NCBI GenBank assembly: GCA_037137655.1
Contig: JBAXJX010000002.1
Location: 293,730 to 357,729, forward strand
Reading direction: 5' to 3'
From: Candidatus Falkowbacteria bacterium
GTDB taxonomy: Bacteria > Patescibacteriota > Patescibacteriia > Patescibacteriales > UBA12465
Length of the DNA stretch: 64,000 nt
Position numbers and translations under genes: made by a program. Each line of letters starts with the position of its first letter. Position 1 is the first letter of the stretch. Shown here in pieces: positions 32,921-59,185 of this stretch. The notes under the pieces were generated by a model. It did not search any database and was not told the origin of the DNA. It worked only from the letters and a program-made list of their open reading frames with translations.

Positions 32921-32927
32921 TTTTTGT

Positions 32928-34403: not shown

Positions 34404-34411
34404 TTAATAAA

Positions 34412-37663: not shown

Positions 37664-37670
37664 TTAATTT

Positions 37671-38183: not shown

Positions 38184-38191
38184 ATTTTTTT

Positions 38192-38605
38192 ATGAAAATA
38201 ATTAATAAAAATAAATCTGGAGTTATTGCTTTGATGATGGTGGTAATAATTGGTGCCGCCGCTTTAGTGATGGCCTATGCTGCCTCCTTTTTAAGTTTGG
38301 GGAATTTAACCACTTCTTATGATGCGCACAACGGTAGCGAAGTTTATTCTATGTCTGATGGTTGCGTGGAGACGGCCATGAAAAAATTTCGTTTAAATCC
38401 TGGAACATACACTGGTGAAACTTTGAACTTTTCTTCTGGCTCATGTATAATAAGTATTAGCGGTTCTGGTGCGACACGCACTATTACTTCCACGGCGACT
38501 CGCGGCAATTATACCGCGATTCTTGACGTCGTTATTTCTTACTCCACCGGAACTTACGGTGAAACAATCGTTACTGTAAATTCCTGGACAGAGCGAGAGA
38601 ATTAA
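38192..38605 (+). CDS. minor pilin-like protein lacking Glu5 (PilX/GspK-position)
   Basis: N-terminal hydrophobic helix 'SGVIALMMVVIIGAAALVMAYAA' with no conserved Glu. 137 aa. Position is in the minor-pilin block. Confidence 0.55.
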   Translation: MKIINKNKSGVIALMMVVIIGAAALVMAYAASFLSLGNLTTSYDAHNGSEVYSMSDGCVETAMKKFRLNPGTYTGETLNFSSGSCIISISGSGATRTITSTATRGNYTAILDVVISYSTGTYGETIVTVNSWTEREN

Positions 38606-38614
38606 TTTTTTAAA

Positions 38615-40342
38615 ATGGCTTTTAAAAAATCAGTTGGTTTGGATATTGCCGACCACACAATCGAGATCTTAGAACTATCGCGCGGTTTTGTTGGTGCCGT
38701 TACGGTGTCAGCTGCTGGGCGCATGTCGCTAAGCCCTGGCGTTGTATCTAATGGTCGGATTATAAATGCTGAAGCGCTTAAAGCGGCTTTACAAAAATTA
38801 TTTAGCCAAGCTAAGCCAGCAGCAATTGTCGCGGATGAAATTTGTTTCGGTTTACCCGATAGTCAAATCTACACCCGTGTTTTTGCGTTGCCACCACATC
38901 ACCCGAATGATTTAGAAAGTTTAGTTTTGCAGGAGGCGATAAATAGTATTCCGATTGATGAAGATAATTTAAATTACTCATATAAAGTTTTACACGAAAC
39001 ACCGGCCGGCACCGAAATTCTTTTGGCCGCGGCCGACGGTGAAGTGATAAAAGAATGGCACGATTTTTTCGTTGATTTGAAAATTAAAAATATTACTTTT
39101 GATCTTGAGCCATTAGCTTTGGCGCGCGGTTTGTTACTAAAAGATTCTGGTACCACCATGATTTTGGATATCGGTTCAGCCACGACCAGCTTGTTTATTT
39201 TTAGTGATGGTAATTTGGCTTATAGTCGATCTTTGATTGTGGCTGGCGATTACTTAACCAAGAAAATTTCACTTGATTTACAAATTAGTCTAGCTGAGGC
39301 AGAAGAGCAGAAAGTAAAATTTGGTTTGTCGTATCCAGATAATAAAGTTGTTAATCCAATCATGGATGTTTTAAAAGAAATTTCACTTAAAGCAAAAGAG
39401 TCAATTAATTATTTTGAAGAACGTAAAAAAACTAAAGTGACAAATTTTATTTTGGTTGGTGGCACGAGTCAAATGTTTGGATTGCTCGAATACGTAAAAG
39501 CCGAATTAAAACTCCCGGGCATTATCGGCCAGATGAAATTTGATGATAAAGTTATTCCATTGCTTTACGTGGAATCAGCTGGTTTAGCTTTGCGCCTCAT
39601 AGATGATAAATATAAAGATGATTTAAAAATATCTTTTACGCCCAATAAAGTTGCGCCAGCACTGTTACCACAAGAAGAGTTGGTAATTGCGGCTAGCGAA
39701 TCTTATGATAACGGTGAATCAAATGAAGAGGGAGCACAAATTTTAAAATCATTAACACCACCGCCAGTTAAAGAAGAAAAAGTTAAATCAAAATTATTAT
39801 TATTGGTAGATATTTTAATTGTGGGTGTTGTGCTTATTGGTTTGTCTTGGCAATATCGTACTTACAATGATAAAAAACAAGCGCTTGATTTACAAGCGAG
39901 TATTGTACAGCATATTAATTTGCAAACACTAAATACTAAAATTGAAGTCTCGACGATTGGTCTAGAGAATACTGCTGATCGTGTTCTAGGTCGTGTTGTT
40001 CGGGTAACCGTTGCTTCTAGCACTGATTTAGCTACAGCGGAAAATACCGCCAAAGATTTGTTGGCACCGCAGTTAAATTCTGGGGAAAAATATTTCCGTG
40101 AGCCAATTAATCGTGACACCTTGTTGAATAAATTAGAATTTCCGGTTATTTTTGAGTGGCTAGTTTATGATCAACGCAGTTATTTGGCGATTGTTAATAA
40201 ACGGCTTGAGTCAATTAATCCTAATAAAATCCCTGCGGATTTAAATGGGGCCGAGCTAATTGCGCTTAATAAAACTGCTTCGCAGGATGTTTTCTCCTTT
40301 GATTGTCGAATTAGTTTTTATGCTAATGAAACTTTAAAATAG
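38615..40342 (+). CDS. pilM: PilM actin-like ATPase fused to a TM helix and a PilN/PilO-position external domain
   Basis: 'VGLDIADHTIEILEL', 'ILDIGSATTSLFIF', 'ILVGGTSQMFGL' (PilM/FtsA-like). TM 'LLLLVDILIVGVVLIGLSW' near aa 395-413, then ~160 aa. Confidence 0.8.
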   Translation: MAFKKSVGLDIADHTIEILELSRGFVGAVTVSAAGRMSLSPGVVSNGRIINAEALKAALQKLFSQAKPAAIVADEICFGLPDSQIYTRVFALPPHHPNDLESLVLQEAINSIPIDEDNLNYSYKVLHETPAGTEILLAAADGEVIKEWHDFFVDLKIKNITFDLEPLALARGLLLKDSGTTMILDIGSATTSLFIFSDGNLAYSRSLIVAGDYLTKKISLDLQISLAEAEEQKVKFGLSYPDNKVVNPIMDVLKEISLKAKESINYFEERKKTKVTNFILVGGTSQMFGLLEYVKAELKLPGIIGQMKFDDKVIPLLYVESAGLALRLIDDKYKDDLKISFTPNKVAPALLPQEELVIAASESYDNGESNEEGAQILKSLTPPPVKEEKVKSKLLLLVDILIVGVVLIGLSWQYRTYNDKKQALDLQASIVQHINLQTLNTKIEVSTIGLENTADRVLGRVVRVTVASSTDLATAENTAKDLLAPQLNSGEKYFREPINRDTLLNKLEFPVIFEWLVYDQRSYLAIVNKRLESINPNKIPADLNGAELIALNKTASQDVFSFDCRISFYANETLK

Positions 40343-40356
40343 TTTATTTTAAGCGC

Positions 40357-40385
40357 TTGTAGAAAATATTGATATTTGTTATAAT
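40357..40385 (+). promoter_or_regulatory. sigma70-type promoter of pilin paralog 1
   Basis: TTGTAG (40357-40362), 17-nt spacer, TATAAT (40380-40385). About 70-nt leader to the ATG at 40462. Confidence 0.6.
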
Positions 40386-40461
40386 TAAGTTGTTAATAAA
40401 AAATTGGTCATGTTTTACTGGATTTTATATTATTATAAATCCGCGTGCCAAGAAAAATTTT

Positions 40462-40947
40462 ATGAAAAACAAAAAAGCTTTTACATTGATTGAGCTTTTG
40501 ATCGTTATTGCGATCATTGCCATCATTGCTGGAATCGTTTTTGTCGCCTTGAATCCCTTGGCAAGATTCGCCGCGGCCAGAACATCACGACGTTGGGCTG
40601 ACGCTTCAGCTGTATTAACCGCTATCAAGGTTAATCAAATTGATAATGGTGGTGCTTATTGTACCTCTATTACTGCCATGCAAAATGGTATCGTTTACAT
40701 GATTGGTACTAGTACTACTGGCGCTCAACAAACTTGTCAAACAACTATCGGTACTTCAAGTGCAGTTGATTTAACAGCTTTAGTTACTGGTGGTTACCTA
40801 GGTAGTGTTCCAGTAAGTCCAAGCGGAAATTACACTTACTACAATGGAAGCACAACTGGTTACACTTTAACAAAAGCAACTAGTGGTTTAATCACTATTA
40901 CTGCTTGTGATACTGAATCAACTCCTCAACCTTCAGTTTCTAGATAG
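40462..40947 (+). CDS. type IV pilin paralog 1
   Basis: 'MKNKKAFTLIELLIVIAIIAIIAGIVFVAL' (Ala at -1, Glu5). Shared motifs 'RRWADA', 'IKVNQIDNGG', 'GGYLGSVPVSPSG', C-terminal 'ACDTES'. The ORF-track TTG start at 40369 is rejected. Confidence 0.85.
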   Translation: MKNKKAFTLIELLIVIAIIAIIAGIVFVALNPLARFAAARTSRRWADASAVLTAIKVNQIDNGGAYCTSITAMQNGIVYMIGTSTTGAQQTCQTTIGTSSAVDLTALVTGGYLGSVPVSPSGNYTYYNGSTTGYTLTKATSGLITITACDTESTPQPSVSR

Positions 40948-40965
40948 TTTTTAACAAAACTATTT

Positions 40966-41466
40966 ATGTCTAAAAAGGATCGATCTGGTTTTACTTTGCT
41001 CGAGATATTAATCGTAATTGCGATAATTGCGATTGTTCTTGCCTTAGTTTATGCCACGGTCGATCCTTTTGCTCGTTTTAAGGCGGCGCGTGATGCGCGT
41101 CGCTGGTCGGATGCTGAGAATTTATTAAATGCCATTAAAGTTAATCAAGTTGACAATAGTGGTCATTATATTAGTGCCATCGAATCGCTACCAGCTGCTA
41201 CGGTCTTTATGATTGGGACCTCGACAAGTGCTTGTGATTCACAAAACGCTAACTGTCTTATTGATCCAGCTAGTTCAACGGCCTGTGTTGATTTGAGTCA
41301 GTTAATCTCCAGCGGTTATATTGGTGCTTTACCAGTTAGTCCGCGCGGTAATGGAACTTGGAATGCTAGTTTAAGTGGATATACTTTGCAGAAGAATGCT
41401 AATGGTAGTATGATTGTGCGCGCCTGTGAGAATGAGGGGGCTCAACCTGTTAGTTTGACTAGATAA
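40966..41466 (+). CDS. type IV pilin paralog 2
   Basis: 'KDRSGFTLLEILIVIAIIAIVLALVYA', 'RRWSDA', 'IKVNQVDNSG', 'SGYIGALPVSPRG', 'ACENEG'. Confidence 0.85.
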   Translation: MSKKDRSGFTLLEILIVIAIIAIVLALVYATVDPFARFKAARDARRWSDAENLLNAIKVNQVDNSGHYISAIESLPAATVFMIGTSTSACDSQNANCLIDPASSTACVDLSQLISSGYIGALPVSPRGNGTWNASLSGYTLQKNANGSMIVRACENEGAQPVSLTR

Positions 41467-41470
41467 TTTT

Positions 41471-41971
41471 ATGAAAAATAAACGAGGCTTTACTTTAATA
41501 GAACTTTTAATTGTGATTGCTATTATTGCAATTTTAGCATCAATTGTTTTTGTAGCTTTAAATCCGCTAACTCGTTTTCGTGATGCTCGTGATTCGCGTC
41601 GCTGGGCTGATGTCCATTCCGTGTTAAATGCTATTCGTATTAATCAAGTTGATCATAAAGGTGCCTTTTTAACTCCGGTCGCCTCTATGGAAACAGGGAC
41701 GGTTTACATGATAACTAATGCCGCAGTTTCCAGTGGTTGCGCTAACTACAATAATAATTGTAAGGTTGACGTTACGGGTGATAATTATTGTGTTAATTTG
41801 GGGCAACTTTTAATTGACGGTTATTTGGGTAATGTGCCGGTTAGTCCAAGTGCTGGGGGAACATGGAGTGATTATGCTACTGGCTATACTTTGGAAAAAG
41901 ACAGTAATGATATTTTAATTGTGCGCGCCTGTGAATCAGAGGATACTCCAGAAATAAAATTAGCTAGATAA
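41471..41971 (+). CDS. type IV pilin paralog 3
   Basis: 'MKNKRGFTLIELLIVIAIIAILASIVFVAL', 'RRWADV', 'IRINQVDHKG', 'DGYLGNVPVSPSA', 'ACESED'. Confidence 0.85.
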   Translation: MKNKRGFTLIELLIVIAIIAILASIVFVALNPLTRFRDARDSRRWADVHSVLNAIRINQVDHKGAFLTPVASMETGTVYMITNAAVSSGCANYNNNCKVDVTGDNYCVNLGQLLIDGYLGNVPVSPSAGGTWSDYATGYTLEKDSNDILIVRACESEDTPEIKLAR

Positions 41972-41984
41972 TAGAGTTTTTGAA

Positions 41985-42017
41985 AACACGACTTGTAGTA
42001 AGAAGTGTTTTTTTTTT
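41985..42017 (+). terminator. probable intrinsic terminator after pilin paralog 3
   Basis: Interrupted stem aacac..ctt/aag..gtgtt followed by a T10 run (42008-42017). Confidence 0.55.
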
Positions 42018-42043
42018 GACGAAATTAATAAATCTGATATAAT
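42016..42043 (+). promoter_or_regulatory. promoter of pilin paralog 4 (first of three tandem extended -10 boxes)
   Basis: TTGACG (42016-42021), 16-nt spacer, TGaTATAAT (42035-42043). Confidence 0.55.
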
Positions 42044-42075
42044 AAATTTGATATAATAAATTTGATATAATAATT
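42034..42075 (+). repeat. 3 x 14-bp tandem repeat (c/t)TGATATAATAA(A/T)T
   Basis: Units at 42034-42047, 42048-42061 and 42062-42075. Each contains an extended -10 consensus TGATATAAT. The last TATAAT ends 6 nt before the ATG at 42078. Confidence 0.9.
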
Positions 42076-42077
42076 TT

Positions 42078-42566
42078 ATGAAAAACAAAAAAGCCTTTAC
42101 CTTAATCGAGCTTTTGATCGTAATCGCGATTATTGCTATCGTTGCCGGAATCGTTTTTGTTGCCTTAAATCCATTGGCAAGATTCGTCACGGCCAGAACA
42201 TCACGACGCCTAGCTGACGCCTCAGCTGTTTTGACTGCTATTAAAGTTCATCAAATCGATAATGGCGGTGCTTATTGTACTTCAATCACTGCTTTGGCGA
42301 GTGGGGTGACTTATATGATTGGTACTTCAACTTCTGTAACAACTGGAACAGCGGCTTGTGCTTTAAGCAGCATTGGATCTACTACAGCTGTTGATTTGTC
42401 TGCCTTAATATCTGGTGGATACTTGGGTAATGTCCCGGTAAGTCCAAAGGGTAATAGTGCCTATTCTTTTGCTTTAACTGGATATACCTTGACCAAGAAT
42501 GCTAATGGTTTAATTACTATTGCTGCTTGTGATTCTGAGTCAGGCCAACTTTCAATTTCTCGTTAA
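42078..42566 (+). CDS. type IV pilin paralog 4 (closest to paralog 1)
   Basis: 'MKNKKAFTLIELLIVIAIIAIVAGIVFVAL', 'IKVHQIDNGGAYCTSITA', 'GGYLGNVPVSPKG', 'ACDSES'. Confidence 0.85.
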   Translation: MKNKKAFTLIELLIVIAIIAIVAGIVFVALNPLARFVTARTSRRLADASAVLTAIKVHQIDNGGAYCTSITALASGVTYMIGTSTSVTTGTAACALSSIGSTTAVDLSALISGGYLGNVPVSPKGNSAYSFALTGYTLTKNANGLITIAACDSESGQLSISR

Positions 42567-44212: not shown

Positions 44213-44500
44213 ATGGATGATAATGATTTTGGACAGATTAGTAATATACTAATAAATCGTAAGGTTGTCAAAGCTCCGGCTTATGAATGGCAGGATTTTG
44301 CTTTGCGCGTCATCAAGGAGCTAAACGCTCCGCCATTTAAACGTTCCTCGGTTTTTAAGATTTGTAAGGACTTGCCTCGACCGCTGGTAGAACAAGCGCT
44401 AAATGATACGAAAGAACTTTGTAAAGGTGGACAATCTTGGATGTATTTTTTTAAGATTATTGAAGGTATTGGAAAAAATAATCCACCGGTAAAAAATTAA
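44213..44500 (+). CDS. hypothetical protein (95 aa)
   Basis: ORF with no recognised motif. Its TAA overlaps the stop of the convergent gene in a shared TTAA. Confidence 0.55.
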   Translation: MDDNDFGQISNILINRKVVKAPAYEWQDFALRVIKELNAPPFKRSSVFKICKDLPRPLVEQALNDTKELCKGGQSWMYFFKIIEGIGKNNPPVKN

Positions 44501-46790: not shown

Positions 46791-46860
46791 GTATTTAAAG
46801 TGTTAAATTTTACCTTTTCATTATAGTACATGTCGGCAAAAATTTCAATTTAATCTCGGA

Positions 46861-46930
46861 AACCCGACCTTCACCAAAGGCTACGGCGGGTGAAATAAAA
46901 AAGCTACTATTTTTGCAGATAGTAGCTTGG
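46861..46930 (-). repeat. bipartite hairpin element, copy 1 (terminator module downstream of the Nudix gene)
   Basis: aacccgacc..ggcgggt (hairpin 1), gaaataaaaaa, then agctactat-ttttgcag-atagtagct (hairpin 2). On the minus strand hairpin 2 is followed by TTTTTTATTT. Confidence 0.85.
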
Positions 46931-46949
46931 AGACGTTGAAAATAATTTT

Positions 46950-47474
46950 TTAAAGCTTTTTTATTTTAGCCAAAGCTTGCAGATTGGCTGGATCGGTCAC
47001 AATTTCTTCGGCCTCAGCGAAAGTCAGCCATTTGGTGTCCAAAAATTCTCGCGGATCAATATTGAAATCGGCGCCGTCAGTTGAAACTAAATACCAAACG
47101 TCATAATGAGTTTTGCAGGGTTGGACTTCATTTTCAATCGGTGTAATTGTGAGTAGAAAAGGCATGACCAATTCTTTGAAAAAATCTTTAACGCCGAGCT
47201 CTTCGTTTATTTCGCGATTTAAAGCTCCTAAAATTGTTTCGCCAGCATCGATGTGTCCGCCAGGTGAGATCCATAGTCCGGATTTTTTGTGGTGCACGAT
47301 AAAGACTTTTTTCGTGCTTGGATTGTAAGGCAAAAAGTAAGCACAAAAATGGTTGGCCGGATCCTCATCGCGAGTTGGCAAACCTGCGGCTAATTTTTGT
47401 TGATAAGCTTGGTAAGTTGCCGCATCACATAATGATGGGTTTATGACATTGATAATTGATTCAATTGTTTTCAT
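46950..47474 (-). CDS. Nudix hydrolase
   Basis: Full Nudix box 'GGHIDAGETILGALNREINEELGV'. Confidence 0.9.
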   Translation of the reverse strand: MKTIESIINVINPSLCDAATYQAYQQKLAAGLPTRDEDPANHFCAYFLPYNPSTKKVFIVHHKKSGLWISPGGHIDAGETILGALNREINEELGVKDFFKELVMPFLLTITPIENEVQPCKTHYDVWYLVSTDGADFNIDPREFLDTKWLTFAEAEEIVTDPANLQALAKIKKL

Positions 47475-47584
47475 GTTATTGATTTTTAATGAATGTTTCT
47501 TTGTAATTTAACTCTAGCACGGATGTATTTTTATGTTAAGTGCTTTTTATAAAAAGTTTATACCGCCATTGGTTTAATGGTTGC

Positions 47585-48595
47585 ATGGCTAAAATAAAAA
47601 ATGGTAAAAAATCAATCTTCGGCGGTGAAATTGTGATTTATAAGACTAAAGACGGTAATCCTGATTTAATTGTGAAAATGGAGAAAGAGACTATTTGGTT
47701 AACGCAAGCGCAAATCGCCAATCTTTTTTGTGTTGAGAGAAGTGTAATTACGAAACATTTGCGTAATATTTTTAACGATTTTGAATTAAACGAAAAAAGC
47801 AATGTGCATTTTTTGCACATTGCTAATTCTGGTAAACCAGTTAAATTTTATAGCTTGGATGCTATTATCTCCGTCGGTTATCGTGTTAACTCTAGGCGTG
47901 CGACTCAATTCAGAATTTGGGCGACTAAAGTTTTGAAAAATTACATTATAAAAGGCTACGCAATTAATGAGAGAGGTTTAAGGGAAAACAAGAATTTAAG
48001 ATTGGACGAATTAGAGAAAACAATTAATTTTTTGCAAAGAATTATTAGCACCAAACAATTAAAATCAATTGAAGCCAACGGTTTATTAAAAGTGATAACT
48101 GATTATGCTAATTCTTGGATAGTTTTGCAAAAATATGACGAGAGAAAGTTAAAACTTGTAAGTCGTGGCAAGATTATTAATAATCTGAATTATGATTTTT
48201 CTAAAAGTGAAATAAATGAACTTAAGGCCAAGTTAATTAAGGAAAAACAGGCGACTGACATTTTTGGTTTGGAGCGGGAAGGTGCCTTGGAAATGATTAT
48301 TAAAAATTTAGCTCAAACTTTTGCGGGGAAAAATTTATATTCAAGCGTGGAAGAACGCGCCGCTCATTTATTATATTTTGTAATTAAAGATCATCCATTT
48401 GTTGACGGCAACAAGCGCATCGGTTCATTTTTGTTTATTTTGTTTTTGCTTAAGAATAACTATCTTTACAATAAAAAAGGCGAGAAGAAAATTAATGATA
48501 GCGCCTTAACGTCGTTGGCGCTGTTAATTGCCGAAAGTGACCCAAAGGAAAAGGACATGATGGTGGCGCTGATATCGAATTTGTTGATTAATTAA
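47585..48595 (+). CDS. RhuM-family N-terminal domain fused to a Fic/Doc (death-on-curing type) domain
   Basis: 'IWLTQAQIANLFCVERSVITKHLRNIF', 'KFYSLDAIISVGYRVNSRRATQFRIWATKVL' (RhuM-like). C-terminal 'HPFVDGNKRIGSFLF' matches the Doc-type H-x-F-x-D-G-N-K-R motif. Start at ATG 47585 rather than GTG 47540. Confidence 0.8.
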   Translation: MAKIKNGKKSIFGGEIVIYKTKDGNPDLIVKMEKETIWLTQAQIANLFCVERSVITKHLRNIFNDFELNEKSNVHFLHIANSGKPVKFYSLDAIISVGYRVNSRRATQFRIWATKVLKNYIIKGYAINERGLRENKNLRLDELEKTINFLQRIISTKQLKSIEANGLLKVITDYANSWIVLQKYDERKLKLVSRGKIINNLNYDFSKSEINELKAKLIKEKQATDIFGLEREGALEMIIKNLAQTFAGKNLYSSVEERAAHLLYFVIKDHPFVDGNKRIGSFLFILFLLKNNYLYNKKGEKKINDSALTSLALLIAESDPKEKDMMVALISNLLIN

Positions 48596-48662
48596 ACCCG
48601 ACCTTCGCTAAAGCTACGGCGGGTGAAATAAAAAAGCTACTATTTTTGCAGATAGTAGCTTT
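48595..48662 (-). repeat. bipartite hairpin element, copy 2
   Basis: aacccgaccttcgctaaagctacggcgggtgaaataaaaaagctactatttttgcagatagtagct. Near-identical to copy 1 except in the loop of hairpin 1. Overlaps the RhuM-Doc stop codon. Confidence 0.85.
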
Positions 48663-48685
48663 AAGGGAATTAGAAATATGATCAT

Positions 48686-49447
48686 TTAAACTCCTATTTC
48701 TTTGTTGGCGCTAAATACTGGGTCATCTAAAGTAATTCTAGTGTTTATTGTGTTAGAAATTATTTTTTTTGGAAAACCAGTTAAAGCAATGATTTTATTC
48801 AGAAAATCAATAGTTGAAATTACTTGCTTAGAATATTCTTCGGTTAGCCGGTTTATTTCTTCTTGATTGGAAGCATTATGTTCTTGAAAAATTTCGATTA
48901 AATACGCTTCAATGCTTAGATAATCACGATCTTTGTATTTTTCGAGTAAAATTTCAAACACTTCCAACCAGTCTAATTCCGAATTTAATATTATTTCTAT
49001 TCTTGCTGGTATTTCTGCGCGTGCGTTTTCGCACTCGCCAATAATACTAGTTAAAATAACAAATAACACCCCATTATTATTGTTCAAGGTCCAGTGTAAT
49101 CGCTTAAGAGAGTATTCTTTTCCTTTGGCCCAAACTGGTTCGTGTTTAACAATAATTTTTTGCCCGTCTTTTGTAACTAATCCCGTGTAATCGTCGCAAG
49201 AGAGACTGTCATTATTTGTTGTTATATATCTATTTTTTACGACATATATGGCAATTATATTTACGGAAGCAAAAATCAAGACATAAATCATTATTGGATT
49301 TTTTATAATATCCATAAATTCTGGTTCATGATTTTCACCTCTACTGCAAAAAGCAATACCAAGCGTTGTGAAAAATAACAATAAAAAATTAACAAGTATT
49401 GGAAAGTTGCTAAAGAATAAAAAATAGCTTCTAATAAATTTTTTCAT
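48686..49447 (-). CDS. hypothetical membrane protein (2 N-terminal TM helices plus a ~170-aa soluble domain)
   Basis: 'FLFFSNFPILVNFLLLFFTTLGIAF' and 'IMIYVLIFASVNIIAIYVV'. No recognised domain. Confidence 0.7.
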   Translation of the reverse strand: MKKFIRSYFLFFSNFPILVNFLLLFFTTLGIAFCSRGENHEPEFMDIIKNPIMIYVLIFASVNIIAIYVVKNRYITTNNDSLSCDDYTGLVTKDGQKIIVKHEPVWAKGKEYSLKRLHWTLNNNNGVLFVILTSIIGECENARAEIPARIEIILNSELDWLEVFEILLEKYKDRDYLSIEAYLIEIFQEHNASNQEEINRLTEEYSKQVISTIDFLNKIIALTGFPKKIISNTINTRITLDDPVFSANKEIGV

Positions 49448-49534
49448 GATTTCTAGATTTTTGGTGAGACATTTATTTAGTTGTCAAACAACAAGTTTGA
49501 TTTTTTAAATTATCATTTTAACTAATGTTTGTCA

Positions 49535-49580
49535 AGGCGCCAAATAAAAAAGCTACTATTTTTGAAGATAGTAGCTTGGA
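49535..49580 (-). repeat. bipartite hairpin element, copy 3 (hairpin 2 intact, hairpin 1 reduced to 'ggcgcc')
   Basis: ggcgccaaataaaaaagctactat-ttttgaag-atagtagcttgg. Confidence 0.8.
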
Positions 49581-49608
49581 TTTTGTAAGTCTATATTTGC
49601 TTTTCAGT

Positions 49609-49824
49609 TTATTTAAGCCCTCTAAGTCTTATATTGCTCTTTATAGTGAGTGAAAAAGTTATAAAACTACAAGCAAAACTAATTACTGTTAGTATGGCAC
49701 CGAATAAGCTTGGCTTATCGATAAACAATAAACCACAAAAGATAAAACTACAAATACCGAGAATTGTGGTATATATGCCTTTGTTGCGATATCGTTTTTC
49801 TCTAAAATAATGTACATTTTTCAT
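49609..49824 (-). CDS. small 2-TM membrane protein (71 aa)
   Basis: Basic N-terminus 'FREKRYRNK', TM 'IYTTILGICSFIFCGLLFI' and 'LFGAILTVISFACSFITFSLTI'. Second gene of module A. Confidence 0.6.
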   Translation of the reverse strand: MKNVHYFREKRYRNKGIYTTILGICSFIFCGLLFIDKPSLFGAILTVISFACSFITFSLTIKSNIRLRGLK

Positions 49825-49850
49825 CGTTGCTAGATTTTTTGATTAAACAC

Positions 49851-50060
49851 TTATTCGCTTTTTGGTTCTTTTGGTTCTTTTGACCCATCTTTTGCTTTTA
49901 ATACTTCTTCTTTGATGGCATCAATTGCAAATGATGTTGCGAGTGAAGCAAGTCCACATGCCAGTAACGCGTAAAAAGTAGAATGTTTTGTTATGGCATT
50001 ATAGAGTGAGAAAATAGTGCCGGCAGCAGCAAAACTTGCTATGAATTTTAAAATGTTCAT
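49851..50060 (-). CDS. small 2-TM membrane protein with charged C-tail (69 aa), paralog of 50428..50646
   Basis: 'GLASLATSFAIDAIKEEV' aligns with 'GSTLATMGFTLDAIEKMI' of the paralog. Tail 'KAKDGSKEPKEPKSE' versus 'KPVETKRPKSE'. Confidence 0.65.
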   Translation of the reverse strand: MNILKFIASFAAAGTIFSLYNAITKHSTFYALLACGLASLATSFAIDAIKEEVLKAKDGSKEPKEPKSE

Positions 50061-50108
50061 AATGTATGGTTTTTTTGGTGAGTATTTATATGTGAAATAA
50101 CTGCCAAT

Positions 50109-50137
50109 AATGTATCATGAATACCTATGGTTGTCAA
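50109..50137 (-). promoter_or_regulatory. promoter of small-TM module A
   Basis: Minus strand: TTGACA (50137-50132), 17-nt spacer, TACATT (50114-50109). It directly abuts terminator copy 4. Confidence 0.6.
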
Positions 50138-50140
50138 ATA

Positions 50141-50180
50141 GAAAATAAAAAAGCTACTATTTTTGAAGATAGTAGCCTGG
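50141..50180 (-). repeat. bipartite hairpin element, copy 4 (hairpin 2 only)
   Basis: gaaaataaaaaagctactat-ttttgaag-atagtagcctgg. Confidence 0.8.
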
Positions 50181-50197
50181 TGTGTCGAGATTGTTTT

Positions 50198-50395
50198 TTA
50201 TTTGCCTTTAATAATTTTTTTTAGGCAGGTTAAGAATCCATACATGAAAACGCCTCCTCCGATTGGTGCAAATAAAACTGGTATCATGTGACTTATAATA
50301 GATAGATCTAGAACGTCTATTGTAAAGCACGTCAATGTTAGTATAAATGCTCCAAATGCTGTTGATGCTCCGATTATTGTTCCGTTAGGGTTCAT
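50198..50395 (-). CDS. small 2-TM membrane protein (65 aa)
   Basis: TM 'IIGASTAFGAFILTLTCFTIDVL' and 'MIPVLFAPIGGGVFMYGFLTCL'. Second gene of module B. Confidence 0.6.
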   Translation of the reverse strand: MNPNGTIIGASTAFGAFILTLTCFTIDVLDLSIISHMIPVLFAPIGGGVFMYGFLTCLKKIIKGK

Positions 50396-50427
50396 TTCTA
50401 TAAATTTTAGGTGAGTGTTAAAATTGT

Positions 50428-50646
50428 TTATTCGCTTTTTGGTCTTTTTGTTTCTACTGGTTTATTTGCGACAGCATTATTAATCATTTTTTCGATTGCA
50501 TCAAGAGTAAAGCCCATCGTTGCTAAAGTGCTGCCAGCGGAGCCTATCATGAAAAAAAAATTGTGATTTTCTATAAAAGCACAAAGGTTAACAATAATTA
50601 AGACGGCGCATAGTGTCGCCATGGAAATGGAAATTGAGATTCTCAT
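50428..50646 (-). CDS. small 2-TM membrane protein with charged C-tail (72 aa), paralog of 49851..50060
   Basis: See 49851..50060. The 3' ends share the DNA ttattcgctttttgg(t/c)c. Confidence 0.65.
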   Translation of the reverse strand: MRISISISMATLCAVLIIVNLCAFIENHNFFFMIGSAGSTLATMGFTLDAIEKMINNAVANKPVETKRPKSE

Positions 50647-50693
50647 GATATATGGTTTTTAGGTGAATATTAAAATGTGAAATAACTGCCGAT

Positions 50694-50722
50694 ATTGTAT
50701 CACGTTTTTAGTAAAAAGTCAA
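50694..50722 (-). promoter_or_regulatory. promoter of small-TM module B
   Basis: Minus strand: TTGACT (50722-50717), 17-nt spacer, TACAAT (50699-50694). The leader shares GGCAGTTATTTCACAT with module A. Confidence 0.6.
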
Positions 50723-50733
50723 TATGTGGCAAA

Positions 50734-50779: not shown

Positions 50780-51541
50780 TTATTGTTCTTGGAATTCTAC
50801 TCCGGCCGTAAAATATTCGGCAAAAGTTTCTTTGATTTCTGGGATTAATTCTTCCCAAGAAGAAGTTTTATCTTTGGTAAATTCAATTTGATAATTGCCG
50901 GGACGTTCTGCACAAATGGTGCCGTTAGCAACAAATAAGCCGTGAATTTTACACATTTTTCTGCCCAACTCCAAATGGCGAAAAGTCTCAAAGTTTACAA
51001 TGAATTTCATAAAATTTCCGTTGGGAGATTTTTCAATTATGATTTTTTGTTTATCACCAATTTCTTTGGTAACTTGGATAGACTCCGCACATAAATGACC
51101 AAAGATAAATTTCAAGATAGTGTCTAATAATTGATCAAAGTTGGTGGCTGGAGATTTCATAATATTTAATTCATGTGAACTGGAATAACCAATTTTTACC
51201 AGCTGTGGCACTTCCATCATTAGATCGTTAATGCTTGATTGGTTGAAATTGTGAGGCATTGAAGTTGCAAACATTAAGACGTCTTTAGCCTTGATGGAAT
51301 TTTTAGAAACGCGAATGGAAAATTTTAGATCTTTTAAACTGTGAAAAAGATTTTTATCTAAATCATCAACTTTGTAAGCGTCTAATGAAACCTCTGAAAC
51401 ATCTTTCAGTGCTTCACTTTTTTTATTTTTCTTTCCGTAAGAAAAAATCGCCATGACTCCGAACAATGCTCCCGCAAAAATAACCATGCCTAATCCGATG
51501 TAATAACCAGTCGTACTGGCTAAAATAATATTTATTACCAT
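50780..51541 (-). CDS. membrane-anchored protein with C-terminal Nfu_N-like domain (tentative)
   Basis: N-terminal TM 'YYIGLGMVIFAGALFGVMAIF'. The C-terminal 'IIIEKSPNGNFMKFIVN..IHGLFVANGTICAERPGNYQIEFTKDKTSSWEELIPEIKETFAEYF' resembles the Nfu/NifU N-terminal scaffold domain pattern. Confidence 0.6.
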   Translation of the reverse strand: MVINIILASTTGYYIGLGMVIFAGALFGVMAIFSYGKKNKKSEALKDVSEVSLDAYKVDDLDKNLFHSLKDLKFSIRVSKNSIKAKDVLMFATSMPHNFNQSSINDLMMEVPQLVKIGYSSSHELNIMKSPATNFDQLLDTILKFIFGHLCAESIQVTKEIGDKQKIIIEKSPNGNFMKFIVNFETFRHLELGRKMCKIHGLFVANGTICAERPGNYQIEFTKDKTSSWEELIPEIKETFAEYFTAGVEFQEQ

Positions 51542-51749: not shown

Positions 51750-51761
51750 GTATAGCGGCTT

Positions 51762-54404
51762 TTATTTCACATTCAAAAGAATTTCATCTTTTAGACCAAG
51801 GTCAATCGTCACCTTATCGCCGTCTTTAATTTTGCCCTCCACAATATTCATCGCTAATTCATCTAAAATTAGAGTTTGAATCACGCGTTTAAGTGGTCGA
51901 GCACCATAAGTAATATCAAAGCCTTTTTCAGCTAAAAGTTTCTTCACCTTCTGACTAATCTTAATAGTCACGCTGCGGTTAAGTAGGCGACTAGCCACTT
52001 TAGCTAATTCCAATTCCACGATTTCACCCAAAGCTTCTTTGCTTAAATTCTTGAAGATTACAATTTCATCAATACGATTTAAGAATTCTAATTTGAAATA
52101 TTCTTTTAGAACTTTATCAATCTTTTCTTTCATCTCGCCTTCATGAATTTTTTGTTCTTCAGCCTCATTTTGACCGTCATTAAAACCAATAGAGAATTGT
52201 TTGATAACTTCATTGCCCAAATTAGAAGTCATGATGATAATAGTGTTTTTGAAGTTCACGATGCGACCCTTGGAATCGGTTAAGCGGCCATCATCTAAAA
52301 TCTGCAACAACATGTTGAAAGTTTCAGGATGAGCTTTTTCAATTTCATCAAAGAGCACGACACTATATGGACGACGACGAATTTTTTCGGTTAATTGTCC
52401 ACCTTCTTCATGACCGATGTAGCCCGGAGGGGAACCGATTAATTTAGCCACACTATGTTTTTCCATGAACTCACTCATATCCAAGCGGATCAAAGCGTTT
52501 TCATCATTAAACATAAAGTGCGCTAAAGATTTAGCCAGTTCTGTTTTACCGACACCGGTTGGACCAACGAACATGAAAGAACCAATCGGTTTTTTCTCTT
52601 CGTTAATACCAGCACGACTACGACGCAAAGCATTAGCAATGGCATGAATCGCTTCATCTTGGCCGATAACATATTTCTTTAATTCATCTTCGGCGTGGGC
52701 TAATTTCTTGATTTCATTTTCCATCATTTTTACGACCGGCACACCAGTCCAACGGGAAACAACTTTGGCGATATCTTCTTCGTCCACTTCTTCCTTCAAA
52801 ATGCGTTGGCCCTTTTTCTGAATCTTAATTAATTCTTCTTCTTGTTGTTTAATTTCTTTTTCTAATTTTGGAATTAAGTCGTAACGAATTTGGGCGACCT
52901 TAGTTAGGTCATCGCCGCGCCGTTGAATAATTTCGGAATTAGTTTTTAACTCTTCAATTTTCTTTTTATTGTCACGGATTTTACTGATAATACTTTTTTC
53001 GTTATTCCAATGTAATTCTAATTGACCAGCCTTTTCTTTTATTTCCGCTAATTGTTTACTGATAGTTTTTATTTTACTGGCGCTATTTTTATCTTTAGTG
53101 GCTCCGATACCAGCCTTGGCAATTTCCAGTCGTCGAGTTTCACGCTTTAAATTATCAAGTTCTTCGGGCATGGAATCAATTTCCATGCGCAATGAAGATG
53201 TGGCTTCATCCATTAAATCCACCGCCTTATCTGGCAAGAAACGATCTGTGATATAGCGACCAGAAAGTTGCGCCGCCGCAATTAAAGCATTGTCGGTAAT
53301 GCGAACGCCATGATGCACTTCATATTTTTCTTTGATGCCACGCAAAATCGCGACCGTGTCTTCGATGCTCGGTTCATTCACCATAATCGGTTGGAAGCGA
53401 CGTTCGAGCGCTTGATCCTTTTCAATATATTTTTGATATTCTTTGGTGGTGGTTGCGCCAATAGTTCTGATTTCACCGCGAGCCAAGGCTGGTTTTAACA
53501 TGTTAGAAGCATCCATTGAACCTTCGGATGATCCGGTACCAACAATGGTATGTAATTCGTCGATGAATAAAATTATTTTACCTTCTTGCGCTTGGACTTC
53601 TTTTAAAACTGCCTTTAATCTTTCTTCAAATTCACCACGGAATTTAGCACCAGCCACAAGTGCGCCCAAATCAAGTGATACCACTTCTTTGGACTTCAAC
53701 ATTTCTGGCACATCACCAGCGACAATGCGTTGGGCTAAACCTTCAACGATAGCAGTTTTTCCAGTTCCAGCTTCACCGATTAACACCGGATTATTTTTGG
53801 TCCGACGAAGAAGTACTTGCATGATGCGACGAATTTCACTATCACGACCGATAACCGGGTCAAGCTTTTCTTCGCGCGCCAAGGCAGTTAAATTGATAGT
53901 ATATTTTTCTAACACACGGAATTTAGTGTCTGGATCTGGGTCGGAAATTTTTTGGTTGCCGCGTAATTCTTTTAAGATATTTAAAACTTTATTATGTTCG
54001 ATCTTAAAGTTTAATAAGATTTTTTGCGCAGAAGAATTAACGCCGATTAAAGCGAGTAAAATGTGTTCGGTGGAAATATATTCATCACCCATACCATCGG
54101 CTTCTTTTTTGGCGCGTTCAAGTATCATGGCTACCTCATTAGTGCCTTGAACAGCTTGAACCGGGCCAATGGAAGGGGAGACCTTGCCTTTAGGTAATTT
54201 GTTGATGCCCTTTAGCACAAAATCCTCGATCATATCAGGATCGATTTTGGCCTTTTCTAGAATCGGGCGAATTAAGCTCTCGTTTTGTTGGAGTAGCGCT
54301 AAAAGTAAATGAAGCGCCTCAATGTATTCTTGCCCGAAATCTTGGGCGATAATTTGGGCGTTAATAATCGCTTCTTGCGATTTGCTGGTAAATTTGTTGA
54401 ACAT
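51762..54404 (-). CDS. clpB: ClpB-type AAA+ disaggregase (long M-domain) with a ClpC-like 'IGF' loop
   Basis: N-domain 'HLLLALLQQ'. D1 '[20 protein letters not shown]' and '[12 protein letters not shown]'. ~130-aa coiled-coil M-domain. D2 '[17 protein letters not shown]' and '[11 protein letters not shown]'. '[14 protein letters not shown]' lies between 'TSNLGNE' and 'FLNRIDE'. Confidence 0.9.
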
Positions 54405-54455: not shown

Positions 54456-54482
54456 TTAGCACTCTAATGTTAAGACTGCTAA
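54456..54482 (-). promoter_or_regulatory. CIRCE-like HrcA operator upstream of clpB
   Basis: TTAGCACTC-taatgttaa-GACTGCTAA versus consensus TTAGCACTC-N9-GAGTGCTAA (one mismatch). It sits immediately downstream of the clpB promoter. Confidence 0.75.
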
Positions 54483-54954: not shown

Positions 54955-55419
54955 TTATTCTTTTTCTTCTTCTTGGTCCTTGTCTCTTATTTCTTCGTAT
55001 TCGTAGAAGCTCAGTTGTTTTATCAATTCTTTTATTACGGCCACGTGTCGTTTAACGTAAAGTGGATCAACGGAGTCATCTTCGATTACGGGCATCTCCA
55101 CAAGGTCTTCGCTTGGGGCAATACTATTTTTTATTACCGGAATTATCTTTGGGAGTAAATCGTCCCATTCAAAACACTTGCCTTTTTCGAAACCAATTTC
55201 ATAAGGGCTGATGGTCATAGCGGCCACTCCTTTTATTTTCATTATATTCCTACCTAAACATTCTAACGTTTCCCGGTATTTTTCGTAACATTCGCTGTAG
55301 TCAGCGGTTAAAACACAATTCGTTGATTCAAACATTATGTTGGGAATATTAAGTAGTTTTCTATCCACGCTGATATACATATAGTGAGGATCACCTGTTT
55401 TTTCAACTCTTATTTTCAT
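54955..55419 (-). CDS. Nfu_N-like (Nfu/NifU N-terminal scaffold-type) domain protein with acidic tail (tentative)
   Basis: 'MKIRVEKTGDPHYMYISV' and 'IKGVAAMTISPYEIGFEKGKCFEWDDLLPKIIPVI' match the Nfu_N pattern (I.GV....F.PDFITV.K....W..L.P.I). Strong SD: AAAGGAGGTCGAG-ATG. Confidence 0.6.
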   Translation of the reverse strand: MKIRVEKTGDPHYMYISVDRKLLNIPNIMFESTNCVLTADYSECYEKYRETLECLGRNIMKIKGVAAMTISPYEIGFEKGKCFEWDDLLPKIIPVIKNSIAPSEDLVEMPVIEDDSVDPLYVKRHVAVIKELIKQLSFYEYEEIRDKDQEEEKE

Positions 55420-56536: not shown

Positions 56537-59185
56537 ATGAAGATAAATTTTAAAAAAGTTGAAGATAAATTCGGCGCAGAACTTAACGGTGGATTTTTTT
56601 ATTGGAATGCGACCTTAAGTCAATCAGCTATATTTTTAAATCGCTTGCGTCGGCAGGTGAATAAACTAATTAATTTTAGCGCCGCGCTTGTTGGTGCGGC
56701 TGGTCTCTTGTCTTTAGCTTATTATTTTTATCAAAACTTCCAAACGATTAATAGTTTTTCTTTAGCGCAAATAAGTTTTTTAATCCAAACTCCAAGTGTT
56801 TGGATTTTGTTGTTTTTATTTTCAATTTTGGTTGATACTTTTTTGTTTTATCGTTTAACGGAAGAGGAATATCAATTGGGACGAATTAAAAATTTCTCTG
56901 TCGATGATTTTGGTGGTGATAAAATTGCAGTGGATCTTGGATTTAGTACTAATAGCTTGATTATTGTGGAAAATGCCTATGAGTTGGCCGAAAAATTAAA
57001 ACAAAGTGAGGTTAATCCCCGCCATTTATTTTGGGTACTTTTACGTAATAATAAAGTGCGCACTTTATTCTCACGTTTAAATGTTGATTATGCCGCCTTG
57101 GTTGATAAATTAAAGCGTCATCTTTTAGTGACTGATCCGGCGAGCGCCCAGAATTTAATTCTTTCCGAGAAAACCCAGGAAGTTTTAATTCAAGCCTATC
57201 TTAATGCTTACAATGACAAACGCCGCGCAGTTGATGTTTTGGATCTTTTAGATTTTTGTTATAACGCTGATGATCTTTTGGGAGAAATTTTATTTGACTG
57301 TGAAATTAGTCAAGAAAAATTAGTTAATGCCATTGCCTGGTTTCGTTCGAATGATAAAGTTATTATTGATCGTAAAATTTTCCGAGAGATGGCGCGCTTA
57401 AAACCGGGCAGCTCTATGGATCGCGCGTACACAGCGCTGTCGACACCAACTCTTGATTATTTTTCCGAGGATTTAACCTTGCGCGCTAAATATAATTATT
57501 TTGGTATTTGTTTAAATCGCGATAAAGAGATAAAAGATATTTTTGATACTTTTGCTAGTGGCTGTTTTGGCGCTTTGTTGGTTGGTTCAGTTGGGGTTGG
57601 TAAGCGAACAATCGTAGAGGGCATCGCGCAGTTAATGGTGAAAGAAGATGTGCCGGAAATTTTTAAAGACAAGCGTTTAGTGGAATTGGATGCGGCCCGA
57701 CTTATTGGCGGTGTGAGCGCGGCTGAGGCTGAAGAAAGATTAATGACAATTATCAGTGAGATTGTTCATGCTAAAAATGTGATTTTATTTGTTGATAATA
57801 TTTCCGCGATTACCGGTATTAGTTCTGGTGGCGACGGCAGCTTGGATTTGGCTCAAGTTTTTGCCAATCTCTTAACCCGTGGCAACGTCTATTGTTTAGC
57901 GACAATTAGTCCGGAGAATTATGCCGAATTTGTGGAAGGCAGTGCTTTAGGTAATGCTATGCCGAAAATTGAAGTGCGCGAACCGGATCACAATAGCGCT
58001 ATTCAAATGCTTCAAACTAAGGTGGCTTATTTTGAAAGTAAGTATGGTATTTATTTTGATTATGATGCTATTGCTAGTGTAGTAGAACTATCGGCGCGTT
58101 ACGTGAATGATAAATTTTTACCGGAAAAAGCCATTGATATTTTGCGCTTAGCGGCGGTTCGAGTGGCTAATATTTGTAAACATGATAAGAAACATTGTTT
58201 TTGTTCTCAAGACGACGTGGCTGATATTATTGCGGAGTTTACTGGTGTACCAGTAGCTCGAGTTGGAGAAAAAGAAACAGAAAAACTTTTGAATCTAGAG
58301 GCGAGTATTCATCAACGCATGATTGGTCAAGAAGAAGCGGTTAATGCTATCTCTGGTAGTTTGCGTCGGGCGCGGGCGGAAATGCGTGAAGGGAAGCGAC
58401 CAATTGCTAGTTTTTTATTTTTAGGACCAACCGGTGTGGGTAAAACAGAATTAGCCAAAACAGTCGCAGAGGTTTATTTTGGTGATGAAAAAAATATGGT
58501 TCGTTTGGATATGAGTGAATATCAAATGTCAGATAGCGTTGTGAAAATGATTGGTGATAGCGCCGGTAATTTAGGTTATTTAACTGAAGCCGTACGTCAT
58601 CATCCTTTTTCTCTAATCTTGTTTGATGAAATTGAAAAGGCTAATCCGGATGTTTTAAATTTATTTTTGCAATTAATGGATGATGGACGATTAACTGACG
58701 GCAGCGGCCGCACGATTGATTTTACTAATGCGATTATTGTGGCGACTTCTAATGCTGGAGCTTTATATATTGAAGAGGCGGTGGAGACGGGTGTGGATAT
58801 TAACATTATTAAACAAGAGATTATTGATAACCAGTTAAATAAGTTTATGCGCCCAGAACTTATTAATCGTTTTGACGGGGTGATAGTTTTTAAACCTTTA
58901 TCTTTTGCTAATGTGGTCGAAATTGCTAAATTGATGTTAAATAAGATTGGTCGGAGCTTGGAGGAAAAAGGAATTGTCTTTGCGCCGACTCAATCCGGGG
59001 TGGAGCGTTTGGCCCAACTAGGTTATGATCCAAAATTCGGTGCTCGCCCGCTTCGTCGTTTATTGCAAGATAGAATTGAAAATGAAGTGGCTAATTTATT
59101 GTTGGCTAAAAAAATTCGTCGCCGAGACACTATTATAGTTAATGATAAAGGAGAATTAGAGGTTGGCAAGGCGAATGAGTTGTAG
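56537..59185 (+). CDS. membrane-anchored ClpB/ClpC-like AAA+ protein with a degenerate first nucleotide-binding domain
   Basis: Two N-terminal TM helices (aa ~46-66 and ~85-105), and a Clp_N-like repeat 'NPRHLFWVLLRNNKVRTLFSRLNVD'. D1 Walker A is 'GSVGVGKRT' (Lys-Arg instead of Lys-Thr), Walker B is 'ILFVDNIS' (DN instead of DE), and the Arg-finger position is 'ALGNAMPK'. D2 is canonical: '[13 protein letters not shown]', '[10 protein letters not shown]', 'GARPLRR'. Confidence 0.85.
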   Translation: MKINFKKVEDKFGAELNGGFFYWNATLSQSAIFLNRLRRQVNKLINFSAALVGAAGLLSLAYYFYQNFQTINSFSLAQISFLIQTPSVWILLFLFSILVDTFLFYRLTEEEYQLGRIKNFSVDDFGGDKIAVDLGFSTNSLIIVENAYELAEKLKQSEVNPRHLFWVLLRNNKVRTLFSRLNVDYAALVDKLKRHLLVTDPASAQNLILSEKTQEVLIQAYLNAYNDKRRAVDVLDLLDFCYNADDLLGEILFDCEISQEKLVNAIAWFRSNDKVIIDRKIFREMARLKPGSSMDRAYTALSTPTLDYFSEDLTLRAKYNYFGICLNRDKEIKDIFDTFASGCFGALLVGSVGVGKRTIVEGIAQLMVKEDVPEIFKDKRLVELDAARLIGGVSAAEAEERLMTIISEIVHAKNVILFVDNISAITGISSGGDGSLDLAQVFANLLTRGNVYCLATISPENYAEFVEGSALGNAMPKIEVREPDHNSAIQMLQTKVAYFESKYGIYFDYDAIASVVELSARYVNDKFLPEKAIDILRLAAVRVANICKHDKKHCFCSQDDVADIIAEFTGVPVARVGEKETEKLLNLEASIHQRMIGQEEAVNAISGSLRRARAEMREGKRPIASFLFLGPTGVGKTELAKTVAEVYFGDEKNMVRLDMSEYQMSDSVVKMIGDSAGNLGYLTEAVRHHPFSLILFDEIEKANPDVLNLFLQLMDDGRLTDGSGRTIDFTNAIIVATSNAGALYIEEAVETGVDINIIKQEIIDNQLNKFMRPELINRFDGVIVFKPLSFANVVEIAKLMLNKIGRSLEEKGIVFAPTQSGVERLAQLGYDPKFGARPLRRLLQDRIENEVANLLLAKKIRRRDTIIVNDKGELEVGKANEL

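Follow-up and report, generated by a model that had tools for sequence, protein, structure and literature searches.

Entericidin ecnAB of enterobacteria consists of tandem paralogous lipoproteins of 41–48 aa that have been proposed to form an antidote/toxin pair, and in the rAID-type islands of Bacteroidales, orphan immunity genes are arrayed between repeated intergenic sequences that bear promoters. Little is known of conflict and dormancy systems in organisms of the Candidate Phyla Radiation (CPR), which have tiny genomes and in which genus-restricted orphan families are common. Candidate type I toxins have been recognized by a set of heuristics, i.e., an open reading frame (ORF) that is short and contains a transmembrane (TM) segment and a charged C terminus, tandem copies within one intergenic region, resemblance that continues past the ORF, relatives with one copy or tandem copies, and ORFs that annotation has overlooked (PMC2887945). 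Here, we describe two tandem modules, A and B, on the minus strand (49541–50722) of a 64-kb stretch of a Candidatus Falkowbacteria metagenome-assembled genome (MAG; the whole stretch is referred to as the window), each of which carries two genes for very small proteins (A1 and A2; B1 and B2, with the first of each pair termed gene 1 and the second gene 2). The locus shows the repeat features listed above, with tandem intergenic copies, similarity beyond the ORF, single or tandem occurrence in relatives and ORFs that annotation appears to have missed, while its gene-1 and A2 proteins (69–74 aa, with two helices and a charged tail) lie at the upper size limit of those heuristics (usually under 60–70 aa) and are atypical in having two helices. 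We found that the modules represent one self-contained expression cassette, restricted to the genus and present here twice, at a fixed chromosomal site between clpB and a RhuM-Fic gene in one lineage of Candidatus Falkowbacteria, and the point most worth attention is how well the regulatory DNA is conserved relative to the divergent protein it precedes.

A duplicated cassette with gene 1 as its core

A preliminary description of the window had proposed that modules A and B follow the same plan, and every feature of that plan (promoter, leader, two small ORFs and closing hairpin) was located on the minus strand (Table 1). The modules are in register, since conserved blocks of A and B lie 577–601 nt apart, and the gaps between the genes measure 26 nt (A1–A2) and 32 nt (B1–B2). 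The TTGAC(A/T)-17-TACA(T/A)T promoters that had been read in both modules are indeed the two best promoter-like sites between 48.0 and 52.5 kb by sigma-70-type scoring. The leader sequence said to be shared is a 16-mer, GGCAGTTATTTCACAT, that occurs exactly at 50090–50105 and 50675–50690; it is part of a 47-nt block in which A and B are 87% identical. A hairpin, AAGCTACTATCTTCAAAAATAGTAGCTT, followed by a T-run closes each module (97% identity over 38 nt between A and B); it consists of a 10-bp stem and then the T-run, like an ordinary intrinsic terminator. Both modules carry this hairpin as described, but it is not confined to them, because further copies follow the NUDIX gene and C253, a gene for a 253-aa protein next to module A. 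The window thus holds four copies, where none would be expected by chance. The two outer copies share a 35-nt extension, and the one after the NUDIX gene is ancestral, because it is also present in a 13.4-kb contig of a sister species (L026).

The first genes are clear paralogs, as had been suggested: A1 and B1 are 34% identical over 65 aa (E = 1e-6), and their 3′ ends share a 28-nt block with 89% identity. The second genes, previously taken to have diverged strongly from one another, are dissimilar, but no common origin was detectable either by BLASTP (A2 versus B2, E = 0.24) or by hhalign of an A2 profile (A2 plus gene 2 of the related locus L002) against B2. B2 also showed no similarity to gene 1, and hhalign recovered no relationship in the pairings compared among the gene-1 family, the A2 family, B2, C253 and U253 (a second 253-aa membrane ORFan, on the clpB side). 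With no detectable relationship between A2 and B2, the parts for which duplication can be demonstrated are promoter/leader, gene 1 and terminator only.

To define the distribution of the family, gene 1 was compared, as a profile, with 1.84 billion representative proteins and, by an indexed search, with 5.8 billion protein clusters. These searches returned four gene-1 clusters (A1, B1, P0004 and P0005, the last two with the true start MRFSTIM), all from this genus and all located between clpB and a RhuM-Fic gene. Two further candidates, P0003 and P0006, were rejected once their sequences had been read, as they are large repeat proteins with scores inflated by the repeats. A2 had a single relative, in L002, and B2 had none. 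In the sister-species contig, clpB is followed by 660 nt of noncoding DNA, one copy of gene 1, the hairpin, a convergent Fic gene, the NUDIX gene, the hairpin with its extension, a 499-aa ORF, Memo, def and fmt, and gene 2 is missing. In both L002 and L029, a B1-like gene 1 precedes an A2-like gene 2. Across the five sequence versions observed, gene 1 was always present, while gene 2 was of the A2 type (module A, L002), the unrelated B2 (module B) or missing (sister species). Since these contexts differ in gene 2, the cassette has gene 1 as its core, with gene 2 an optional and exchangeable part; the presence of gene 1 alone in the sister species also means that the two genes are not an obligatory pair. 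C253 and U253 are absent from the sister locus, and U253, B2, the whole of module A and C253 are, by these comparisons, additions in the lineage of the window.

Homologs of the neighboring Fic protein (≤76% identity) occur at 21 metagenome loci, all of which lack the cassettes, and a conserved functional link to Fic was therefore rejected. In the sister lineages, the 660-nt interval between clpB and gene 1 holds a GC-richer element with inverted-repeat arms of ~75–80 nt (L003, 514–857; L002, 8–305; L004, 364–531). L004 has the part flanking the element in inverted orientation (85% identical) and a different upstream gene, although its gene-1 side is 99.9% identical to L003; the element could be invertible or similar to a miniature inverted-repeat transposable element.

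Conserved control regions and fast-evolving proteins

Next, we examined the coding status of the small ORFs. The sense frame was the only frame open in every homolog. For B1, we obtained a dS (synonymous divergence) of 1.06 and a dN (nonsynonymous divergence) of 0.39 against gene 1 of L003 (Fisher p = 0.001 for excess synonymous change) and of 0.91 and 0.39, respectively, against gene 1 of L002 (p = 0.006), while A2 and gene 2 of L002 gave a dS of 0.85 and a dN of 0.30 (p = 0.0009). The dN/dS ratios are ~0.37–0.43 for B1 and 0.35 for A2; a lack of synonymous-biased variation in relatives had been named in advance as evidence against these genes, and such variation was found for the B1 type and A2 (dN/dS 0.35–0.43, p = 0.0009–0.006). 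The comparison of A1 with B1 is saturated and B2 has no comparator, hence the coding support covers the B1 type and A2.

Gene 1 changes quickly for a gene in this location. B1 is 47–50% identical to gene 1 of L002 and L003, and when the window was compared with the sister loci L003 and L026, neighboring proteins were 76–98% identical, in comparison with 49% for B1 and 31% for A1. The dN of gene 1 (0.39) stands against 0.02 for ClpB and Fic at a similar dS (~0.9–1.2), and gene 1 is the fastest-evolving protein of the locus. The noncoding parts of the cassette show a different pattern. Between the window and the sister, DNA identity was 74–87% for neighboring coding DNA and 55–79% for other intergenic regions, and the DNA just past the clpB stop codon could not be aligned; identity reached 91–93.5% over the 76 nt from the −35 hexamer to the gene-1 ATG (L002 and L003) and 95–97.5% in the hairpin, versus 66–67% in the gene-1 coding sequence (CDS). 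The promoter plus 5′ untranslated region (5′UTR) and the terminator are therefore the best-conserved DNA of the locus, and the upstream conserved block runs from the −35 hexamer itself to a point a few codons inside the ORF.

The simplest reading of this promoter/leader conservation would be sequence-specific recognition at the level of DNA or RNA. RNA structure does not explain it, because the leaders of A and B are predicted to be unstructured (z between −1 and 0), and no Rfam family matched at the locus. Most genes in the window lack a Shine-Dalgarno sequence, and, as the genome is mostly without them, their absence from the cassette genes is normal. We found the motif TCACCWAAAA exactly three times in the 64 kb (upstream of A1, B2 and C253; 0.1 expected by chance), and the B1 leader has the same motif core as TTCACCTAAAA. 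The B2 start is preceded by a 20-nt fragment of a gene-1-type leader rather than by an A2-type junction, and the start region of C253 is 87% identical to that of A2. Profiles of leader and hairpin (nhmmer) revealed no extra copies in the window or in L026 and L027, and scans for the exact leader/hairpin patterns found none in GTDB species genomes or JGI metagenome contigs, collections that evidently do not include the short contigs carrying the cassette. Separately, the 3′ end of the clpB mRNA (its NVK* codons plus 9 nt; 51752–51773) is complementary to the start of the module B leader (50674–50695) at 19 of 22 positions and to that of module A at 17 of 21; regulation through this match was dropped as an idea, since about one such match per window is expected by chance and only 9 nt are conserved in the sister species.

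The two modules resemble their relative L002 in different places. Module B is 95–100% identical to L002 over most promoter/leader windows, 40–65% through most of the CDS and 75–90% at the codons of a juxtamembrane helix, while module A is 75–95% identical to it between the stop of gene 1 and codon 14 of A2, with no synonymous differences there. An ancestral unit of promoter, gene 1, A2-like gene 2 and terminator may thus have been duplicated in tandem, after which copy B would have kept promoter, leader and gene 1, while copy A would have kept gene 2 together with the junction and the gene-1 3′ end; what remained, namely the A promoter and A1 in one copy and the position of B2 in the other, would have diverged or been replaced. 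We regard this anatomy and evolutionary history of the cassettes as very probable.

Layout, annotation and chromosomal setting

Table 1. Coordinates of the cassette features and of the related neighboring elements in the window
Feature	Position	Strand	Remarks
Module B promoter, TTGACT-17-(TG)TACAAT	50694..50722	−	Score 10/12, TG extension; conservation with relatives sets in at the −35 hexamer itself
Module B leader with GGCAGTTATTTCACAT and TTCACCTAAAA	50647..50693	−	Predicted 5′UTR of ~42–45 nt; exact 16-mer; unstructured, z = 0.05
B1, 72 aa, gene-1 family	50428..50646	−	Predicted helical hairpin, charged tail ending RPKSE; AlphaFold2 and comparison with L002/L003
B1–B2 spacer with gene-1-type leader fragment CTCACCTAAAA	50396..50427	−	20 nt, 80–90% identical to the A and B leaders
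B2, 65 aa, singleton ORF	50198..50395	−	ORF call and hydropathy (two predicted TM helices); no comparator
Module B terminator hairpin	50143..50180	−	Repeat comparison and pattern/profile scans
Module A promoter, TTGACA-17-(TG)TACATT	50109..50137	−	Score 10/12, TG extension
Module A leader with GGCAGTTATTTCACAT and CTCACCAAAAA	50061..50108	−	With the promoter, 73% identical to B and L002; not significantly structured, z = −1.0
A1, 69 aa, divergent gene-1 paralog	49851..50060	−	Tail ending EPKSE; 34% identical to B1, 25–35% to gene 1 of relatives
A1–A2 junction	49825..49850	−	20-nt windows from the last gene-1 codons through ~14 gene-2 codons, 75–95% identical to L002
A2, 71 aa, predicted helical hairpin, strongly basic N terminus	49609..49824	−	55% identical to L002 gene 2; dN/dS 0.35, p = 0.0009
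Module A terminator hairpin	49541..49580	−	97.6% identity with the hairpin that follows gene 1 in L003/L026
C253, 253-aa membrane-anchored ORFan	48686..49447	−	Own promoter-like site (~49507–49543), CTCACCAAAAA leader motif
Third hairpin copy with 35-nt extension	48593..48663	−	Between C253 and the convergent Fic gene; hairpin itself 48626–48663
Fourth hairpin copy with the same extension	46860..46931	−	After the NUDIX gene; hairpin itself 46893–46931; also in L026

A1 and B1 correspond to WCK37_04715 and WCK37_04720 of the MAG, which has a 965-kb contig. Their NCBI locus tags run consecutively from C253 through A1 and B1 to U253, so A2 and B2, which have no NCBI accession, appear to be missing from the annotation. 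The cassettes sit in a neighborhood of tRNA-Glu, fmt, def, a Memo-like gene, a gene for a secreted 496-aa protein, the NUDIX gene, the RhuM-Fic gene, the cassettes themselves, U253 and clpB, i.e., on a CPR chromosome and not in a phage. The 496-aa secreted protein was considered as a lysin and discarded, with no PDB or Pfam match.

The RhuM-Fic/Doc protein (47540–48595, plus strand) matches the PADLOC candidate defense family PDC-S23, and the NUDIX protein (46950–47474, minus strand) gives a weak match to PDC-S07 (E = 7e-10); the pair is flanked by ~70-nt direct repeats formed by the third and fourth hairpin copies with their extensions. The coding region of C253 contains a long, imperfect hairpin (48960–49075, both strands; minimum free energy −26.9 kcal/mol, z = −2.7 from the folding tool and approximately −5 in a sliding scan). 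Residues 220–247 of U253 (50780–51541, minus strand) score 25.4 bits against Nfu_N (cut-off 27), as does, at 22.1 bits, a 154-aa ORF (54955–55419, minus strand) on the other side of clpB.

A CIRCE-type inverted repeat, TTAGCAGTC-N9-GAGTGCTAA, is located at 54456–54482 (minus strand), just 3′ of a TTGACA-17-TATATT promoter upstream of clpB, which is probably under HrcA heat-shock control because of this repeat. The window holds two ClpB-like AAA+ genes, ~2 kb apart on opposite strands (56537–59185, plus strand; 51762–54404, minus strand), with ORFs of 79 (coiled-coil-like), 154, 143 and 140 aa of no clear family between them. The Memo-like gene and def are separated by a 95-aa ORF on the opposite strand (44213–44500, plus strand), probably a real small gene given its 90.5% identity to a 99-aa gene predicted in the sister-species contig. 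Farther away, a type IV pilus cluster (26294–42566, plus strand) comprises a T2SSF/PilC-like gene, PilM, at least six proteins with a prepilin-type N-methylation motif and large proteins with Laminin_G_3 domains.

Possible functions and comparison with known systems

The preliminary description had portrayed the products as small two-TM proteins with charged tails, and hydropathy together with the AlphaFold2 models of B1 and A2 agrees with this. A1 has two hydrophobic stretches, A2 and B2 each have one long merged stretch covering both helices, and the second helix of B1 (~residues 29–48) falls below the hydropathy threshold. The model of B1 has helices at 2–27 and 30–60 (pLDDT 83) and that of A2 at 3–32 and 38–69 (pLDDT 75). 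The proteins are predicted to insert in the cytoplasmic membrane as helical hairpins with both termini inside (N-in/C-in), a topology that, read from the charge distribution, is clear for A2 and B2 and weak for A1 and B1, with external loops of ~4–10 residues. Gene 1 is further distinguished by a conserved juxtamembrane helix, AIExMINNAxxNK, in addition to its charged tail. A Foldseek search of PDB with the B1 model returned only generic helical hairpins, all with E > 2. The absence of a matching described family was likewise borne out, as scans of the four small proteins and both 253-aa neighbors against Pfam, PHROGs, PADLOC and NCBIfam gave nothing near thresholds. The single signal from a bacteriocin family was that of B1 against the E492 microcin model (15.6 bits, cut-off 50), and A2 scored 13.1 bits against SLATT_4 (cut-off 55) and E = 0.012 against the PADLOC family CARF_TM. 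For a SLATT-type conflict effector, there was no match at the curated threshold and no sensor or nucleotide-signaling partner gene. A bacteriocin or microcin pair found no backing either, with no GG leader visible and no ABC/C39 exporter among the neighbors.

Taken as a whole, the explanation that we tentatively place first combines a duplicated cassette, complementary retention of its halves and a controlled, membrane-active product. Its functional part, in which gene 1 encodes a tightly controlled, membrane-active protein resembling type I toxins or holins, is possible but doubtful. The activity of gene 1 would rest on the bulk properties of the hairpin, the juxtamembrane helix and the charged tail, its synthesis would be controlled through recognition of the promoter/5′UTR by a putative repressor or RNA, and gene 2 would be a dispensable modulator. 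Such sequence-specific control could account for 76 nt remaining nearly frozen while the protein drifts, and we rank this reading first because a frozen control region next to a drifting hydrophobic protein is what would be expected if mis-expression were dangerous.

Several observations weigh against it. No antisense or divergent small RNA (sRNA) partner was visible, and a scan and direct reading of A, B, L002 and L003 uncovered no conserved antisense promoter; no conserved structured RNA was found besides the terminators, with the structure at the A1 3′ end not common to B1; and no regulator gene lies near the cassettes. The cassette leader is short and unstructured, while the mRNAs of typical type I toxins have long, folded leaders, and the proteins have two helices and 65–74 aa, while classical type I toxins have one helix and <60 aa. 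A strong promoter with an open leader is equally compatible with an abundant harmless protein. A dN/dS ratio below 1 with a fast dN requires no conflict, and TM segments tolerate many substitutions. The complementary-retention scenario, moreover, rests on three lineages and saturated dS.

The gene-1 products may instead be harmless, abundant membrane proteins, e.g., lineage-specific accessory or stabilizing subunits or stress proteins, made constitutively from a strong promoter, and we hold this alternative to be an uncertain one too. Conservation of promoter and leader would then reflect selection for high expression in a genome mostly without Shine-Dalgarno sequences, an equally uncertain proposition, which agrees with the near-consensus promoters and with A/U-rich, open leaders that would matter for translation where most window genes lack that signal. 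The viability of gene 1 on its own in the sister species, the dN/dS below 1 and the position of the cassettes next to the CIRCE-controlled stress gene clpB point the same way. Promoter strength, however, does not account for the conserved spacer between the −35 and −10 hexamers or for the conservation of nearly every leader base, when other promoters of the locus are 55–69% identical, and a subunit of a conserved complex would not be genus-restricted, nor 49% identical beside neighbors at 76–98%. Class II microcin immunity proteins are inner-membrane proteins of ~50–100 aa with two or three TM helices, and the small proteins could, in the same manner, protect against membrane-targeting toxins or act as phage exclusion factors, with strain-variable copies as in orphan-immunity arrays. 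Expression signals that look constitutive, a gene 1 that is solitary in some genomes, fast protein evolution with copy-number differences among close relatives, and the adjoining RhuM-Fic (PDC-S23, E = 5e-119) and NUDIX (weak PDC-S07) genes all fit such a role. Nevertheless, we consider it unlikely: the surroundings contain no gene for a cognate toxin, exporter or peptidase, the short predicted loops would leave little exposed surface, the cassette-free loci with Fic homologs show no conserved Fic link, and no immunity or defense family matched. Our order, held with low confidence, is thus a controlled membrane-active protein, then a harmless abundant protein, then an immunity-type protein.

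Two further alternatives concern the origin of the cassettes. The fixed promoter/5′UTR and hairpin could be sockets of an integrase-free platform: recombination between these handles, whether homologous or site-specific, would duplicate or exchange unrelated small membrane ORFs (gene 1, A2, B2 and C253), or new ones would arise there. The hairpin is 95–100% conserved at every unit boundary (four in the window, two in the sister), while the clpB terminator cannot be aligned between species; unrelated ORFs share the TCACCWAAAA motif and blocks around their starts; and, where the conserved junction sequences meet, gene 2 is either wholly there or wholly missing. If true, the lineage would possess a rapidly diversifying repertoire of membrane-active proteins. 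However, the hairpin looks like an ordinary intrinsic terminator, neither a recombinase nor an integrase was found among the ORFs scanned (31.7–63.6 kb), which also counts against an integron, exchange events are uncountable with the three lineages available, and serial local duplication is the simpler account of the copies; we therefore give the platform little credence. Still less probable, to the point of being a marginal proposal, is a remnant of a phage lysis cassette, either with a holin and an antiholin or with a pair of holin-like proteins. The charged C-terminal tail, the two TM helices with their probable N-in/C-in topology and the pairing of small TM genes speak for it, and two holin-like proteins occur in some phage lysis cassettes (PMC13056207). 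Yet the holin/antiholin option of the preliminary description rests on this generic shape and did not survive comparison with the context: the annotated neighborhood has no endolysin, spanin or other phage or prophage gene, no PHROG or Pfam holin family matched, tblastn with B1 and A2 found nothing in 50,697 phage records and the gene-1 profile nothing in IMG/VR, gene 1 is syntenic between housekeeping genes in the sister species, and a promoter and terminator of housekeeping type belong to every unit. By the context and family tests run, the cassette does not appear to be a holin pair.

Should gene 1 prove to be a tightly controlled membrane toxin, the locus would be among the first candidate small-toxin loci in the CPR. 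Whatever the function, it is a clean natural case of regulatory DNA far better conserved than its protein; it also exemplifies operon-scale duplication, with each copy seemingly keeping a different half, and, in A2, which has comparative support, it shows a real small gene skipped by standard annotation.

Among known systems, the type I loci ldr/rdl, ibs/sib and zorO-orzO/zorP-orzP resemble this locus in their small hydrophobic proteins with a charged or polar C terminus, in units of ~0.3–0.6 kb that are repeated within one intergenic region with similarity reaching into the untranslated regions, and in a narrow, vertical distribution with single or tandem copies in relatives that are often unannotated (PMC2887945; PMC3919570). 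In contrast to them, the cassettes are bicistronic, encode two-TM proteins of 65–74 aa instead of a single helix in <60 aa, have a short, unstructured leader and lack a detectable antisense or divergent sRNA gene. Class II holins and pinholins are similar in size (~70 aa), in their two TM helices, in the N-in/C-in topology predicted here and in the charged C-terminal tail, and some phages also have two adjacent small TM genes (PMC7312051; PMC13056207). Unlike holins and lysis cassettes, the present genes lie outside any endolysin or phage context, match no holin family and have no homologs in phages; they are chromosomal, with a promoter and terminator for each unit. The entericidin locus differs in that here the proteins are predicted two-TM hairpins with no sequence relationship to ecnAB and the paralogs head separate bicistronic units, but in both cases very small envelope proteins are encoded by paralogous genes that stand in tandem, each with expression signals of its own. 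Unlike integron arrays, the locus has two to four units, each with its own promoter, and a 3′ repeat with the look of a plain terminator; like both those arrays and the rAID islands, it places unrelated small ORFs between repeated, conserved noncoding elements, and its content varies among close relatives.

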